Shown here one piece after another: positions 5,076 through 24,681 of a DNA stretch of 64,000 bases. The stretch's first letter is position 1. Every line of letters begins with the position of its first letter. The stretch lies in assembly GCF_057098645.1 (NCBI RefSeq), contig NZ_CM169472.1, one strand, 5' to 3'. The notes beneath the pieces were generated by a model. That model was not told the origin of the DNA and did no database searches. It saw nothing but the letters and a program-made list of their open reading frames with translations. The translations under genes were made by a program, and so were the position numbers.

Positions 5076-5196
5076 GATTTCGTCCTTTTTAAGGTGGTTA
5101 TTTACACCTTAGCGCAAAGCGGACGTGGTTCCTACTGGAGTGCGCATAACGAACACAAGCCCCCCCGTGGATAAATTGAGAACGAAAGATCAAAAA

Positions 5197-5286
5197 AAAA
5201 GCCAGCACCCGGCTGGCTAAGTAATACTGGAAGCAATGTGAGCAATGTCGTGCTTTCAGGTTCTCCGCGAGGGTCTTCCTGATCGC
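5197..5286 (-). ncRNA. ryhB: RyhB iron-responsive small RNA
   Basis: Reverse complement reads GCGATCAGGAAGACCCTCGCGGAGAACCTGAAAGCACGACATTGCTCACATTGCTTCCAGTATTACTTAGCCAGCCGGGTGCTGGCTTTT, ending in a GC-rich hairpin plus U-run; located between yhhX and yhhY. Confidence 0.85.
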
Positions 5287-6132: not shown

Positions 6133-6878
6133 ATGAGTAATATTGTTTATCTGACAGTAACGGGAGAACAACAAGGAAGCATCTCCGCAGGTTGTGGGAC
6201 TACTTAATCTATAGGTAATCGCTGGCAGAGCGGGCATGAGAATGAAATATTTACATTCTCACTCGCAAATAGCATTACTAATACGGGGCTTGGTTCACAG
6301 TTACAGGGTATAACATTTTGTAAATTAATTGATAAAAGCACTCCATTACTTATTAATTCCATTAACAATAATGAGCAATTATTTATGGAATTTGACTTTT
6401 ATAGAATCAATAGATTTGGCAGATGGGAAAAGTATTATTATATACAACTAAGAGGCGCTTTTTTATCGGCTATTCATCATCAGATCATTGAAAATCAACT
6501 GGATACAGAAACAATAACTGTTAGTTATGAATTTATCCTCTGTCAACATCTTATCGCAAATACCGAGTTCAGCTATTTGGTTGGCACTCCCTGAAAATTA
6601 TAACCGTTTGTTTTTACCAAATTCAAAAAACCAAACAAATAATGGTTTCAAAACGTTAAACAGCAAAGCTGTTGGCAGGCTACTTGCTGCTGGTGGCGTA
6701 TACAATGGGAACATTGAAGGTTTCAGAGATACTGCGGAAAAACTGGGTGGAGATGCAATCAAAGGCTATGATCAAATACTAAATGAAAAAACAGCGGGCA
6801 TAGCGATAGCAACAGCATCTATTCTTTTAACAAAGCGTTCTAAAGTTGATACATATACAGAAATAAATAGTTACTTAG
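6133..6878 (+). pseudogene. yhhZ: Hcp-domain-fused toxin gene, 5' part (Hcp-ET type T6SS effector); in-frame TAA at 6205-6207 and a frameshift in the 6527-6594 overlap
   Basis: ATG 6133 encodes MSNIVYLTVTGEQQGSISAGCGTT then stop; same frame reopens 6208..6594 (SIGNRWQSGHENEIFTFSLANSITNTGLGSQLQGITFCKLIDK...), then shifts to the 6527..6925 frame and runs into the IS5 end; AT-rich; positional equivalent of K-12 yhhZ (symbol assigned by position, from memory). Confidence 0.6.
6875..6878. repeat. Target-site duplication TTAG (left copy) of the IS5 insertion
   Basis: TTAG immediately precedes the IS left terminus GGAAGGTGCGAATAAGC at 6879; identical TTAG follows the right terminus at 8075. Confidence 0.7.
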
Positions 6879-8074
<1,196 letters not shown>

Positions 8075-8078
8075 TTAG
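8075..8078. repeat. Target-site duplication TTAG (right copy)
   Basis: See left copy at 6875-6878. Confidence 0.7.
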
Positions 8079-8515
8079 GCAAACTTAGAGGTCAACAAAA
8101 ACTTCTTGATGGCATAGACATAATAGAAATAAAATACATTAAGAGACCTTCAAAAGACTTAGCTAACTTACGAAAGGAGTTTAACAAAACTGTAAGAAAA
8201 AATTTTCTTATCAAACTTGCAAAAACCTCCGAAGCATCTGGAAGATTCAACGCCGAAGACCTTTTAAGAATGAGAAAGGGCTATGTTCCTCTAAATTATA
8301 ATGTTCACCATAAACTATCTCTAGATGATGGTGGTACTAATGATTTCGAAAATTTAGTATTAATCGAAAACGAACCATATCATAAAGTTTTTACTAACAT
8401 GCAATCACGAATAGCTAAGGGAATATTAGTAGGTGAAAGCAAAATCACTCCCTGGGCCATTCCATCTGGCTCAATTTATCCTCCCATGAAAAATATTATG
8501 GAACCCACAAAATGA
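8075..8515 (+). pseudogene. yhhZ: Hcp-ET toxin gene, 3' part encoding an HNH-type nuclease domain
   Basis: Removing the IS and one TTAG copy joins ...SYL to GKLRGQQKLLDGIDIIEIKY... in frame; C-terminal motif NVHHKLSLDDGGTNDFENLVLIENEPYH is HNH-like; stop TGA 8513-8515 overlaps the next ATG. Confidence 0.65.
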
Positions 8516-9006
8516 TGACTAAAACCCAAATAAACAAATTAATAAAAATGATGAATGATTTAGACTATCCATTTGAAGCACCGCTCAAGGAATCATTTAT
8601 TGAAAGTATAATCCAAATAGAATTTAATTCTAATTCAACTAATTGCCTGGAGAAGTTATGTAATGAAGTTAGTATTCTTTTTAAGAATCAACCTGATTAT
8701 CTTACTTTTTTAAGAGCAATGGATGGATTCGAAGTTAATGGATTGCGATTATTTAGCCTCTCGATTCCAGAACCTTCAGTTAAAAACCTTTTTGCCGTAA
8801 ATGAATTTTATAGAAATAATGATGATTTCATAAACCCTGATCTACAAGAACGGTTAGTGATCGGGGATGATAGCATTTCAATATTTACTTATGACATTAA
8901 AAGTAACTTTTTTGAAATTAGAGATAATATTGGCACAGAAAATATATTCAGTTCGTTTAGTGATTTCTCTTCATTCTTAAACGAAATCATGGACAGTTGT
9001 TCATAA
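8512..9006 (+). CDS. Putative cognate immunity protein of the HNH toxin (164 aa, acidic)
   Basis: ATG overlaps the toxin stop (ATGA); intact ORF MMTKTQINKLIKMMNDLDYPFEAPLKESF...; AT-rich; immediately downstream and co-directional with the toxin; positional equivalent of K-12 yrhA. Confidence 0.55.
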   Translation: MMTKTQINKLIKMMNDLDYPFEAPLKESFIESIIQIEFNSNSTNCLEKLCNEVSILFKNQPDYLTFLRAMDGFEVNGLRLFSLSIPEPSVKNLFAVNEFYRNNDDFINPDLQERLVIGDDSISIFTYDIKSNFFEIRDNIGTENIFSSFSDFSSFLNEIMDSCS

Positions 9007-9455
9007 TAATCAAAAGGAAACAAAAATCATTGTAAACCATGCCATCTTTTTAGAGATTACCACCAGAAAATTCCTTGTTCGAAATTTAGCAATGCAAGCT
9101 ATGGAAAAACTTACAACGGAACTACACTCCTTAAGTGAGATGGACCGAAGACATGTAGTCTCTATTTTAGCCGAAATAGCTAATGGCTATGATGATTTTA
9201 GTGACATGTTGATTTATTTAGAATTTTACCCAAATCATAAGATTCTGATATCTTAAATAAGAAAATCCCGTTCGAAGTTCTGAAAAAGAAATCACAAAAT
9301 ATTAGCAGATACTTATTTCGTGACTATATCTTATCCGATGAACTTTTTTCAAAACCAGCATTTAATAATATCTTTGACGAAGATGAATGCACCTTTGCTC
9401 AATGTATCACACAGGAATAATAATATAACACTCAACAATAATATTTATTATAATT

Positions 9456-9794
9456 ATGATTACTTATCACGACGCATTCGCGAAAGCGAACCATTACCTT
9501 GATGATGCAGATCTCCCGGTCGTCATTACTCTACATGGACGCTTTAGCCAGGGCTGGTATTTCTGTTTCGAAGCACGAGAATTTCTCGAAACTGGAGATG
9601 AGGCCGCGCGCTTAGCTGGTAACGCACCTTTTATTATTGATAAAGACAGTGGTGAAATTCATTCTCTGGGAACGGCAAAGCCGCTGGAAGAATATCTACA
9701 GGATTACGAAAAAAAAAGGCTACCTTCGGCTTGCCCTGACAAAATAGCCCTCTTCCCACGAAGAGGGCCGCTAACCTTAATACCCCGCAGTTAA
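9456..9794 (+). CDS. yrhB: YrhB-like small protein; as read, 112 aa with a C-terminal extension caused by a 1-nt difference in an A9 tract
   Basis: MITYHDAFAKANHYLDDADLPVVITLHGRFSQGWYFCFEAREFLETGDEAARLAGNAPFIIDKDSGEIHSLGTAKPLEEYLQDYE...; A9 run at 9709-9717; with one extra A the frame ends ...KKKATFGLP at TGA 9735-9737 (94 aa). Confidence 0.7.
   Translation: MITYHDAFAKANHYLDDADLPVVITLHGRFSQGWYFCFEAREFLETGDEAARLAGNAPFIIDKDSGEIHSLGTAKPLEEYLQDYEKKRLPSACPDKIALFPRRGPLTLIPRS
9738..9768 (-). terminator. Rho-independent terminator downstream of ggt
   Basis: Stem GCCCTCTTC / GAAGAGGGC (9747-9755 and 9760-9768) followed on the minus strand by a T-rich run (plus-strand AAAAT 9741-9745). Confidence 0.6.
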
Positions 9795-11510
9795 ATCATC
9801 CACCGAGCGCGGGTCGGATGCACCATACAGCTCACCGTCCGGCCCAACCATAATGCTTTGTGTACTGCCCATCGCCTCTTTCAGCGCCACTTTCTGACCT
9901 TTTGCTTCCAGCAGCTTGAGCGTATCCGGGCTAAACCCTTTTTCGACACGCAGCTCGTCCGGCAACCACTGATGGTGGAAACGCGGCGCATTGGTCGCTT
10001 CGGCGACGTTCATGCCATAATCGATGCTATTCACCACCATTTGAAGCACTGTAGTGATGATCCGGCTCCCGCCAGGGCTACCGGTGACCAGCCAGGTTTT
10101 ACCGTCTTTCACCACAATGGTGGGTGACATCGATGACAGCGGGCGTTTGTTCGGCCCGACGGCGTTGGCATCACCGCCCACCAGCCCGTAAACGTTCGGT
10201 ACGCCCGGTTTGGCGGAGAAATCATCCATCTGGTTATTAAGCAGAATACCGCTCTCGCCCGCGACAATGCCCGTACCGAAGGTGGTGTTCAGCGTATAGG
10301 TCACCGCCACCGCGTTACCATCTTTATCCACCACTGAGTAATGGGTAGTTTGATTACTCTCATAAGGCGCAAGCTTGCCAGGGCGAATCTCGCTGGACGG
10401 TTTCGCTTTATTGATATCGATTTGCTCGGCAATAGATTTGGCATAGGCTTTATTGGTCAGCGCCTGCCACGGGACTTTCACAAAATCCGGGTCGCCAAGA
10501 TATTCCGAGCGGTCAGCGTAGGCATATTTCTCCGCTTCTGCCATGATCTGCATCGCGTCGGCGCTGCCAAAACCGTATTTCTTCATATCGAAGTTTTCCA
10601 GAATATTGAGGATTTGTACGATATGGATCCCGCCGGAGGATGGCGGTGGCATGGAGTAAACCTGATACCCGCGATAATCGCCGCTTATCGGTGTGCGTTC
10701 GACCGCTTTATACGCCGCTAAATCTTCTTTAGTGATCAGGCCACCGTTTTTCTGCATCTCCTGGGCAATCTGTTCCGCTATCGTGCCTTTGTAGAATTCG
10801 TCCGGGCCGTTTTCGGCAATCATCTCCAGGCTCTTTGCCAGGTTCGCCTGCACCAGCTTGTCGCCCTTTTTCAGCGGCTCGCCCTCTTTCCAGAAGATAG
10901 CCTTGCTGTTTTCGTGATTCGGCAGCACTTCGCTCCCGTAGGTTTTGAGATCGTCAGCCAGCGCGTCGTTAACGATAAAACCATCGCGTGCCAGTTTAAA
11001 CGCTGGCTGCACCACTTTGTTCAACGGCATTGTGCCGTATTTATCCAACGCCAGCGAGAAACCAGCGACCGTACCGGGCGTGCCGGAAGCCAGATGCGAA
11101 GTGAGTGATTTTTTGCTGTCCGGGTTGCCCTGGTCATCAAGGAACATATCGCGGGTCGCTTTGGCGGGTGCCATTTCGCGGAAATCGATAGCGGTGGTAT
11201 TGCCATTTTTCGAGCGGATCAGCATAAAACCACCACCGCCCAGATTCCCTGCCTGCGGATGCGTTACCGCCAGCGCGTAGCCCACAGCCACGGCGGCATC
11301 AACGGCATTCCCGCCCTCCTTGAGGATATCCACCCCCACCTGAGTGGCAGTAGCATCTACAGATGCCACCATCCCCTGTTTCGCGCGTACCGGATGGAAG
11401 ACATCTTCCTCCACGCCGTAAGAAACAGGAGGCGCGGCGGCGGCGCTAAAACAACTTCCTGAGAGCAGAGCAGCAATAGCCACCCGGCGTAAAAACGTCG
11501 GTTTTATCAT
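9777..11510 (-). CDS. ggt: Gamma-glutamyltranspeptidase (periplasmic, signal peptide)
   Basis: ORF track 9777..11537; start moved to MIKPTFLRRVAIAALLSGSCFSAAAA; conserved GGT motifs including the autoprocessing threonine region (NQTTHYSVVD). Confidence 0.9.
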   Translation of the reverse strand: MIKPTFLRRVAIAALLSGSCFSAAAAPPVSYGVEEDVFHPVRAKQGMVASVDATATQVGVDILKEGGNAVDAAVAVGYALAVTHPQAGNLGGGGFMLIRSKNGNTTAIDFREMAPAKATRDMFLDDQGNPDSKKSLTSHLASGTPGTVAGFSLALDKYGTMPLNKVVQPAFKLARDGFIVNDALADDLKTYGSEVLPNHENSKAIFWKEGEPLKKGDKLVQANLAKSLEMIAENGPDEFYKGTIAEQIAQEMQKNGGLITKEDLAAYKAVERTPISGDYRGYQVYSMPPPSSGGIHIVQILNILENFDMKKYGFGSADAMQIMAEAEKYAYADRSEYLGDPDFVKVPWQALTNKAYAKSIAEQIDINKAKPSSEIRPGKLAPYESNQTTHYSVVDKDGNAVAVTYTLNTTFGTGIVAGESGILLNNQMDDFSAKPGVPNVYGLVGGDANAVGPNKRPLSSMSPTIVVKDGKTWLVTGSPGGSRIITTVLQMVVNSIDYGMNVAEATNAPRFHHQWLPDELRVEKGFSPDTLKLLEAKGQKVALKEAMGSTQSIMVGPDGELYGASDPRSVDDLTAGY

Positions 11511-18239: not shown

Positions 18240-18953
18240 TTACCCGCCTAAATACGCACTTCTCACCGCTTCGTTCGCCAGTAGTGCATCACCAGTATCG
18301 GAGAGCACCACATGGCCGTTTTCCAGCACGTAGCCGCGATCCGCCAGCTTTAGCGCCTGGTTGGCGTTCTGCTCGACGAGGAAGATAGTCATCCCCTGCT
18401 CGCGCAGCTGCTCGATGGTGTCGAAAATTTGCTGGATGATAATCGGCGCAAGACCGAGAGATGGCTCATCAAGCAACAACAAACGCGGGTTGCTCATCAG
18501 CGCGCGACCAATCGCCAGCATCTGCTGTTCACCGCCGGACATGGTGCCCGCCCGCTGAACACGACGCTCATGAAGACGTGGAAACAGCTCATACACCCAC
18601 TTTATGCGCTCCTGAAACTGATCACGTTCGGCAAAAAAGCCGCCCATCGCCAGGTTCTCTTCCACCGTCATCCGCGAGAAGACGCGACGCCCTTCCGGGA
18701 CAATCGCTACCGCTTCGCGCATGATTTTCGCCGTCTGCCAGTCGGTAATGTCTTTATCATCAAACACAATTCGCCCGCTGGTGGCGCGCGGATCGCCGCA
18801 TAACGTGCCGAGCAAGGTGGTTTTCCCCGCCCCGTTCGCGCCAATCAGCGTGACAATCTCGCCCTGATTGATATGCAGGCTCACCTCATGCAGCGCCTGG
18901 ATTTTGCCGTAGTGGGCGCTGACTTTGTCAAAGGACAACATGACTTTTTCCAT
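18240..18953 (-). CDS. livF: Branched-chain amino acid ABC transporter ATP-binding protein
   Basis: ORF track 18240..18965; start moved to MEKVMLSF; Walker A GANGAGKTT. Confidence 0.9.
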   Translation of the reverse strand: MEKVMLSFDKVSAHYGKIQALHEVSLHINQGEIVTLIGANGAGKTTLLGTLCGDPRATSGRIVFDDKDITDWQTAKIMREAVAIVPEGRRVFSRMTVEENLAMGGFFAERDQFQERIKWVYELFPRLHERRVQRAGTMSGGEQQMLAIGRALMSNPRLLLLDEPSLGLAPIIIQQIFDTIEQLREQGMTIFLVEQNANQALKLADRGYVLENGHVVLSDTGDALLANEAVRSAYLGG

Positions 18954-23076: not shown

Positions 23077-23500
23077 AGTCAAAAATCCCCATTCGTGATG
23101 TTGTGTTGCTTTGTTTTTATGTGTTAACAAATCAGACTGTTCTTTTTTTATACTGCACTGTTTTTGCCTGTCTGATTAAGGGTTTAGCGCAGTATTTTGT
23201 GATAATAGCGATTAAAGTCCCTATTTTTCAGTCGATTAAGAACAGATAATATTCTGAATTTATTGATAGATAAACAGAAAAAAGTGCCTTTGTCAGCATA
23301 AAATAACGGCATAAAGGGCGGAATAATTCACTACCATTCAGGGGATTATGCTGGACATTTTTCATTCTCTAATGTTTTAACTTTGTAATTATTGCTGAAA
23401 AAAAAATTAATCACCTGCCAAAAGAAATAAAAAAGAGAAAGCCTCCGATTAAATTATTTCGTTACACTGGTTCCACTTTTGTGATTTACACGGGTTCCCC

Positions 23501-23884
23501 ATGAAGCTGACCATCATTCGATTAGAAAACTTTAGCGACCAGGACCGGATTGACCTGCAAAAGATCTGGCCGGAGTATTCCCCTTCCTCTTTACAGGTTG
23601 ACGATAACCACCGCATCTACGCCGCGCGTTTTAACGAGCGCCTGCTCGCTGCCGTACGGGTAACCTTAAGCGGCACCGAGGGAGCACTGGATTCCCTGCG
23701 CGTGCGGGAAGTCACTCGACGTCGCGGTGTGGGGCAATATCTGCTGGAAGAGGTTTTGCGTAACAATCCTGGCGTTTCATGCTGGTGGATGGCGGATGCA
23801 GGCGTGGAAGATCGCGGTGTGATGACGGCGTTTATGCAGGCGCTGGGGTTTACGGCACAGCAGGGCGGCTGGGAGAAGCGTTAA
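23501..23884 (+). CDS. panM: PanD maturation/regulatory factor (GNAT-like, 127 aa)
   Basis: MKLTIIRLENFSDQDRIDLQKIWPEYSPSSLQVDDNHRIYAARFNERLLAAVRV...; conserved position between livK and livJ. Confidence 0.85.
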   Translation: MKLTIIRLENFSDQDRIDLQKIWPEYSPSSLQVDDNHRIYAARFNERLLAAVRVTLSGTEGALDSLRVREVTRRRGVGQYLLEEVLRNNPGVSCWWMADAGVEDRGVMTAFMQALGFTAQQGGWEKR

Positions 23885-24408
23885 TCGCTCTGTGTAAAAA
23901 GCAGTTCAATGGATTTGGTTGGGAAAAATAACGCATTTTCGTTTTCCCCGACCAACGGGATAAAGCCCAGCGATTTATAAAACGTATGGGCTTTTTCATT
24001 CAGCGCCTCTACAAAAAGACCGTGAATACCTACTGCTAAAGAGGCTGACCAGACGACTTTCATGGCATGAGCAACCAGTGTTGCTCCCCATCCCTGCCCC
24101 TGTATTGAATGATCAATTGCCAGACGCCCAAGAGTGACGCTGGGAATATTTTTGTAGGGAATTTTTTTCTGTTTCGATTTCGAGGGCAATGCGGCTCGTT
24201 CAAAACAACTGCCGCATAATGTGTAATATCCCAGCACCTGACGTTCTGGAGTGTTGCGACAAAGGATATACGCTCGCAGAATTTTGTTGCGATGTTGACG
24301 AACGAGATGTGTCGTCAGAAAGAGATTTAACGCTTCCTCGCCGCAGTCGAATCGCTGTAGATCATAATCTGCATCATCGGTCAGAATCTCTATCGTCAGA
24401 TCATCCAT
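23881..24408 (-). CDS. GNAT-family toxin of a type II TA system (AtaT/TacT/ItaT-like aminoacyl-tRNA acetyltransferase)
   Basis: 175 aa; acetyl-CoA motif QGQGWGATLVAHAM; immediately downstream of, and 7 nt from, an RHH/DUF1778-like ORF; stop overlaps the panM stop convergently. Confidence 0.8.
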   Translation of the reverse strand: MDDLTIEILTDDADYDLQRFDCGEEALNLFLTTHLVRQHRNKILRAYILCRNTPERQVLGYYTLCGSCFERAALPSKSKQKKIPYKNIPSVTLGRLAIDHSIQGQGWGATLVAHAMKVVWSASLAVGIHGLFVEALNEKAHTFYKSLGFIPLVGENENALFFPTKSIELLFTQSD

Positions 24409-24414
24409 AAATTA

Positions 24415-24681
24415 TTACATTCCCTGAAGACGTTTTACCGCACGTTTTAGCTTTTCACCTGGTGACGGTGGATTACTCAGCGCATCCATCACCCGCGTCC
24501 AGGATTCCTCATTGAGGATCACCCGCCGATGCTGTTCAATCACTTCCGCAGCCCGCTGCGAAGCGCTGTTCAACATAAATTGGCTGACGGACTGATTAGA
24601 TATCGCTGCCGCTTCCTCAATCATACTTTTGTCATCGTCAGTTAAACGCAGATCGATACGCTGCTTTTTAACAGCAGACAT
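24415..24681 (-). CDS. DUF1778/RHH-type antitoxin (AtaR/TacA-like)
   Basis: 88 aa; typical antitoxin N-terminus (KKQRIDLRLTDDDKSMIEEAAAISNQSVSQFMLNSA); GGAGAG SD; first gene of the two-gene operon. Confidence 0.8.
   Translation of the reverse strand: MSAVKKQRIDLRLTDDDKSMIEEAAAISNQSVSQFMLNSASQRAAEVIEQHRRVILNEESWTRVMDALSNPPSPGEKLKRAVKRLQGM

Follow-up and report, generated by a model that had tools for sequence, protein, structure and literature searches.

A nine-adenine run in yrhB of Escherichia coli O145:H28, probably the scar of a single lost T in a decaying toxin/immunity islet

The fact that yrhB carries a nine-base adenine run close to its 3' end, and that its reading frame then continues into the convergent ggt gene, has led us to wonder whether this frame is a sequencing error, a switch that toggles by slippage, or the inherited trace of some other mutation. 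The stretch of DNA analyzed here (the window) covers 64,000 nucleotides of contig NZ_CM169472.1 from the RefSeq assembly GCF_057098645.1. A first-pass annotation, made from the letters alone, had pointed to an A9 run at positions 9709-9717 and to a 112-aa yrhB product running into the terminator and the 3' end of ggt, and direct reading of the window agrees with both statements. The run is bounded by G9708 and by GG9718-9719 and is read in the frame ...GAT TAC GAA AAA AAA AGG CTA CCT...; the ORF extends on the plus strand from the ATG at 9456 to the TAA at 9792-9794 and its translation ends ...DYEKKRLPSACPDKIALFPRRGPLTLIPRS. The ggt gene (577 aa; 9777-11510, minus strand) has its stop codon at 9777-9779 and its PGAP start at 11510, and it shares 18 nt (9777-9794) with the yrhB ORF. 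Between the yrhB tract and the ggt stop lies a G+C-rich hairpin of 9-10 bp (9746-9769), after which the minus strand reads AUUUUGU; since the U-tract is present on that strand only, we take the hairpin to be part of the ggt intrinsic terminator (9739-9769, minus strand). The yrhB ORF of the window crosses this hairpin, whose plus-strand sequence thereby codes for a stretch of the tail of its product. It is conceivable that yrhB transcripts, too, terminate at the hairpin, in which case the 112-aa ORF would lack a stop codon and its product would go to tmRNA tagging; against this, a terminator scan of 9746-9769 made its call on the minus strand only and returned neither a plus-strand call nor a plus-strand U-tract 3' of the hairpin. 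The annotation had also reasoned that an A10 run would close the frame after 94 aa at a TGA placed at 9735-9737. The arithmetic is right, but the TGA lies at 9737-9739.

What the run looked like before the frame was broken can be read from other strains. In K-12 (BW25113), BS-04, ATCC 8739, SCU-116, and E67, whose loci were read directly, the tract is GAA ATA AAA AAG GCT..., that is A3-T-A6, in a gene of 94 codons whose product ends ...DYEIKKATFGLP. The outgroup strain A30 also has A3-T-A6 (...EIKKATFGLP), and strain 98206 has A3-T-A7 with one G fewer, which keeps the same frame. None of these alleles reads A10. Tract alleles were then counted with synthetic queries of 62-63 nt against 5,426 genomes, for which the identity band of at least 99% can be reached by an exact match only. 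With a TAC flank, the wild-type A3-T-A6 tract is present in 2,708 complete genomes and the A9 tract in 26 of 2,862; with a TAT flank, for which the test is partial and 355 genomes could be seeded, the wild-type tract is present in 613 genomes and A9 in 0/355. An A10 tract in yrhB is absent from all complete genomes whose flank could be tested (0/2,862 and 0/355). The 94-aa form had been equated with an A10 allele, and these counts, together with the A3-T-A6 tract of the intact alleles, speak against that equation. The tract of the window is the wild-type sequence less one T: the A9 run is the ancestral AAATAAAAAA without its single T, whose place would be between 9711 and 9712. Because the intact alleles that were read have a run interrupted by T, the A9 run is the product of a mutation and not an older slippery tract; the suggestion that slipped-strand change of a homopolymer had created the frameshift does not hold in the form in which it was made, the A9 run being the consequence of the deletion and not its cause.

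We propose that codon 86 (ATA) of yrhB lost its T in the ancestor of E. coli O145:H28, which would convert GAA-ATA-AAA-AAG-G into GAA-AAA-AAA-AGG with two effects. The frame would move to +1, carrying translation through the ggt hairpin to the TAA located 18 nt inside ggt, and A3 and A6 would be fused into an A9 homopolymer that was absent before. Base composition predicts about 0.11 A9 runs per 64 kb and the window has three, of which the one in yrhB would owe its presence to this fusion. The T may have been lost when an AAA primer end realigned on the downstream template T run and skipped the interrupting base. The mutation would then have been inherited by the whole O145:H28 clone, and the A9 run would later have slipped in ordinary replication, giving the rare A8 and A10 derivatives that are seen at the level of assemblies.

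The distribution of the allele places this event on one branch. The A9 tract is found in 26/26 complete genomes by which the O145:H28 clone is represented in the collection (among them strains recorded as O145:H28 and as O145:NM, from several submitters). When positions 8100-33000 of the window are compared, exactly 26 genomes are at least 99% identical, all of them at about 100%, and the nearest after them is strain A30, from a baboon, with 98.6% identity over 24.9 kb. Among complete genomes, none has the O145 haplotype with another tract, the next match below 100% being at 99.4%. The YrhB of A30 is intact (WP_000634159.1) and identical to that of K-12, its YrhA and YrhD proteins are those of O145, and its tssD already contains an internal stop. 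As A30 retains the T, the branch on which the deletion occurred is the one that gave rise to O145:H28. PGAP calls the gene at this position a "frameshifted" pseudogene in all four O145-type records that were inspected (RM9872, RM12761, 95-3192, and Z1323HEC0422), and the yrhB frameshift of O145:H28 is in this sense already flagged in the RefSeq/PGAP annotation. A large protein collection has 1,558 assemblies with exactly this 112-aa product. The earlier statement that a real frameshift alters the C-terminus of YrhB is thus upheld, since 26 independent complete genomes share the same 361 nt and those 1,558 assemblies the product; a frame broken with respect to intact orthologues and inherited by a clone is one of the features of a frameshifted pseudogene. 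The window itself has an IS5-family insertion in tssD whose junction is missing from all 26 of the A9 complete genomes, and it therefore represents a further independent assembly with A9.

Once formed, the run has not kept a constant length. Tract lengths in assemblies were obtained by exact look-up of the predicted products in the protein collection, and the resulting numbers are counts of assemblies and not of independent events, many isolates, and most of them to judge from contig-length histograms, being apparently counted twice (the same reads having been assembled by NCBI and by Logan). In the O145 haplotype, A9 (112 aa) is found in 1,558 assemblies as given above, A8 (96 aa) in 74 and A10 (94 aa, ...EKKKATFGLP) in 4, and exact look-up in the same collection returned no product expected from A7, A11, or A12. 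In the K-12 type background, the intact A3-T-A6 (94 aa) accounts for 87,251 assemblies, A3-T-A5 (112 aa) for 110 and A3-T-A7 (97 aa) for 16. Variant lengths thus make up 78/1,636 assemblies (4.8%) in the O145 haplotype versus 126 of about 87,400 (0.14%) in the ancestral A6 background, again as assemblies and not events, so that length variants are about 30 times as frequent among assemblies for a nine-base run, once formed, as for the interrupted tract from which it came. Two loci with A8 (L009 and L010) and one with A10 (L008) were examined beside RM9872: they carry the O145-specific ggt SNPs, and apart from the tract 0-2 substitutions separate them from RM9872 within 5-8 kb. The assemblies with A8 include GCA_014111005.1 and GCA_019484205.1. 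A comparison of the 5.2 kb surrounding yrhB, made with two loci of A8, one of A10, and several of A9, brought out no shared SNP by which A8 could be recognized as one clade or as several. Another A9 run, at 5192-5200 in the yhhX-yhhY spacer, has the same length and no gaps in L008 and L009, which indicates that these assemblies do not suffer from general homopolymer compression. A non-coding A9 run in the livK-panM spacer (23398-23406) served as a control. It is A8 in RM12761, 95-3192, and Z1323HEC0422, which have two SNPs in common, at 18459 (A>C) and 27684 (C>T), and it gives a match one base shorter in 6/26 complete genomes; its length change is a clade-structured homopolymer drift. As this control varies in like manner, the yrhB run behaves as any long A run in the clone and is mildly unstable.

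The consequences for the protein appear limited to its end. The Imm35 domain (PF15567) occupies residues 5-83, encoded by 9468-9704, and matches the full profile (1-85/85) with 81.1 bits in the 112-aa form and 81.8 in the 94-aa form, above the curated cut-off of 27.5 in both. The N-terminal 85 residues are those of K-12 YrhB, and the last nine, IKKATFGLP, are replaced by 27, KKRLPSACPDKIALFPRRGPLTLIPRS. In comparison with the Imm35/YrhB family, which comprises immunity-type proteins of polymorphic toxin loci, the window protein is alike in these 85 residues and in the full profile, and differs in having 27 unrelated residues in place of the C-terminal nine. The gene also has the neighbors expected of this family, since it stands last in the row tssD(yhhZ)-yrhA-yrhD-yrhB, in which the K-12 orthologue of the first gene has an Hcp domain and the toxin gene is here a pseudogene. 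In the homologues from Citrobacter, Pectobacterium, Erwinia, Yersinia, Pantoea, Enterobacter, Serratia, and Limnobaculum, conservation extends down to ...YLQDYE-x-KK, after which come tails of 5-8 residues that are unrelated. No solved structure was found for the Imm35/YrhB family. AlphaFold2, run with the alignment of homologues, predicts with confidence a core over residues 1-90 with block-mean pLDDT of 74-90, of which the last helix (77-88) spans the frameshift junction; residues 91-103 fall below a pLDDT of 50, and residues 91-112 average 46-51 and have no predicted secondary structure. The new tail, of about 24-27 residues, is therefore predicted to be disordered, and its calculated pI of 11.6 makes it basic. 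As the deletion falls after the Imm35 domain, the product is likely to be a normally folded YrhB/Imm35 core followed by a floppy basic tail. The pseudogene status is accordingly putative, the PGAP label being a rule-based call on a gene whose Imm35 domain is intact. YrhB is described in PMC10723866, which cites Ahn et al. 2012 on this point, as a stable, chaperone-like small protein.

The genomic surroundings help to understand why such a change may have been tolerated. The islet tssD(yhhZ)-yrhA-yrhD-yrhB lies between yhhY and ggt. In the window, yrhA (8512-9006, plus strand, 164 aa) and yrhD (9101-9256, plus strand, 51 aa) are intact, and tssD/yhhZ (6133-8515, plus strand), the gene for an Hcp protein with a fused toxin domain, is a pseudogene that PGAP describes in O145 as frameshifted and with an internal stop. 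It is further disrupted by the insertion of some 1.2 kb of an IS5-family element (about 6880-8070), whose transposase ORF (7026-8006, minus strand) encodes a DDE_Tnp_1/DUF772 protein of 326 aa. The junction of this element with tssD occurs in no complete E. coli genome of the collection, and the loci of RM9872 and of draft O145 genomes also lack the element; the insertion is for this reason a marker of the source strain or of a sublineage. Elsewhere, IS1 disrupts tssD/yhhZ or its neighbors in K-12 and ATCC 8739, the islet of strain 98206 (L007) is reduced to yrhB alone, strain 134 (L026) has a DUF4225 gene in its place, and even yrhB is damaged in some strains, by an internal stop in E67 and by truncation in TW10590. 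The yhhY-ggt interval is a variable and decaying accessory locus, with which a neutral frameshift in yrhB fits well. Since the toxin gene of the islet was already dead, we infer that yrhB is a dispensable orphan immunity-type gene and that its frameshift is best read as neutral decay.

It seems very probable to us that the loss of one T in the ancestor of O145:H28 left an inherited yrhB frameshift together with an A9 run, followed by neutral decay and later slippage, and the other accounts of the locus have to be weighed against this one. That the A9 run is a homopolymer sequencing or assembly error, the true yrhB being one base longer and intact, was an alternative raised from the outset; long A runs are indeed error-prone on several platforms, and a few assemblies of the same haplotype read A8 or A10. 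Yet an artefact should not be reproduced across assemblies, and A9 recurs in the window and in every complete genome of the clone, from submitters or countries that include the USA, Japan, and South Korea, an isolate sourced from Belgium, and others, as well as in the 1,558 assemblies with the exact product. Moreover, the missing base is T and not A, and under-calling of a homopolymer cannot yield A9 from the ancestral tract; this refutes the error as an alternative, and we give it next to no probability. A phase-variable contingency tract, toggling between the C-termini of A8, A9, and A10 (96, 112, and 94 aa) at high frequency, would account for three tract lengths within one haplotype and for their raised share in comparison with the ancestral A6. 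The locus does resemble the slipped-strand contingency loci of Haemophilus, Neisseria, and Campylobacter in having a mononucleotide run within a coding region (A9, 9709-9717) and lengths of A8, A9, and A10 among isolates. It differs in that the run was made by a mutation and is not kept as a repeat across the species, the intact alleles that were read being interrupted by T (A3-T-A6/7), and in that it stands at the extreme 3' end, after the sole conserved domain, where A8, A9, and A10 all keep residues 1-85, so that the protein is switched off by none of them. The 26 complete genomes all have A9, the 78 of 1,636 assemblies already mentioned do vary in length, the non-coding control run varies in a similar way, and the toxin gene upstream is dead. 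The proposal of a phase-variable tract is weak, and we regard it as extremely improbable. A closer competitor is an origin in two steps, in which T>A would have given an in-frame A10 (I86K, ...EKKKATFGLP) and A10>A9 would have followed, the rare A10 alleles being relics. Four assemblies do have the A10 protein, one of which (L008, SRR6128620) shows 0 substitutions with respect to RM9872 over 8.36 kb, and an A10 run is prone to slip. On the other hand, A10 does not occur in the wild-type background, for which about 87,000 assemblies and about 3,200 testable complete genomes were covered, the outgroup A30 has the T, the A9 run does change length (A8, 74 assemblies) so that A10 arises just as easily as a +1 revertant, and one step is more parsimonious than two. 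We consider this route possible but the less likely of the two, the direct loss of T appearing roughly twice as probable.

A different kind of objection comes from the stop codon of the wild-type gene. A passage of PMC2790909, citing Gurvich et al. 2003, places yrhB with pheL, yjeF, and ykgD among the genes that end in the "shifty stop" CCC_UGA and show raised +1 frameshifting, and a passage of PMC3082878 states that CCC_UGA alone generally gives frameshifting of at most 2% and judges it incidental. Wild-type yrhB ends in this motif; a +1 slip enters GAC AAA ATA GCC..., which is the frame of the O145 allele, and gives a product of 112 aa in total that stops at the same TAA (9792-9794) and has the same last 18 residues. 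The deletion thus resembles the CCC_UGA frameshifting of Gurvich et al. 2003 in reaching the same +1 frame and stop; it differs in being genomic, in lying 27 nt upstream, in affecting all ribosomes, and in leaving the motif (9734-9739) out of frame, whereas in the wild type it is in frame. It is tempting to suppose that the deletion was adaptive and made constitutive a minor but useful +1 isoform of 112 aa, the more so as one-base deletions to that frame recur elsewhere (A3-T-A5 in 110 assemblies, the P0025/P0027 forms). Besides the low rate reported for CCC_UGA alone, the terminator hairpin and the 3' end of ggt account for the sequence of the tail, a 19-codon open run is calculated to occur by chance in about 40% of cases, and the tail is missing in other genera and predicted to be disordered. 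Furthermore, the commoner O145 derivative, A8, leaves the +1 frame, which makes the excess of deletions look mutational. We therefore hold adaptive hard-wiring to be highly doubtful. Its extended form, in which the 112-aa YrhB would be a used isoform hard-wired independently by the T loss in O145:H28, by A6>A5 in K-12-like alleles and by A7>A6 in a divergent allele, strikes us as just as improbable, even if it would, if true, amount to a convergent genomic fixation of a recoding product.

Taken as the loss of a single T followed by neutral decay, the yrhB allele shows a gene decaying in an ordinary way within an Hcp-toxin/immunity islet that is itself degrading, and it is neither an artefact nor a functional phase switch. 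It is comparable to the lineage-specific frameshift pseudogenes annotated by PGAP in clonal pathogenic E. coli and in Shigella, with which it shares a single-base indel fixed in a clone, an accessory islet, and a broken neighbor; it differs from them in that the conserved domain is fully kept and the tail alone is changed, the loss of function being putative. The allele has little biological weight and is at most a marker for the O145:H28 lineage. The lesson is rather one of method, as a homopolymer found at a frameshift may be the scar of another deletion and not what broke the frame, and adding back one A would give EKKK... and not the natural EIKK....

Some observations on neighboring sequences may be recorded here. 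In other yrhB alleles, separate one-base deletions (L015-L020, P0016, P0025, and P0027) also reach the +1 frame and 112 aa; the forms with EIKKLPSACPD... derive from the A3-T-A7 allele, and at least L018 has many split genes, so that this assembly may be of low quality. In one A9 locus (L013, OU349848.1), yrhB is directly preceded by a stretch of N and by genes foreign to the islet (EAL-domain, SDH, NUDIX, and others), which reflects either a scaffold join or a rearrangement of the islet. With respect to K-12, the window differs at 9780 and 9789, where the ggt codons change synonymously (TAC>TAT and ACG>ACT) and the yrhB extension changes V>I and R>S; among the loci read, 9789A is limited to the O145 haplotype and 9780A is common. 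The ggt of the window also lacks one of the two APP repeats that follow the signal peptide (about 11420-11440, minus strand), with AAAAPPVSY versus AAAAPPAPPVSY in K-12, so that Ggt has 577 instead of 580 aa; A30 likewise has a ggt of 1,734 nt. Finally, by correspondence with the annotation of RM12761, an ataT/ataR toxin-antitoxin pair lies between panM and livJ, at about 23880-24680.
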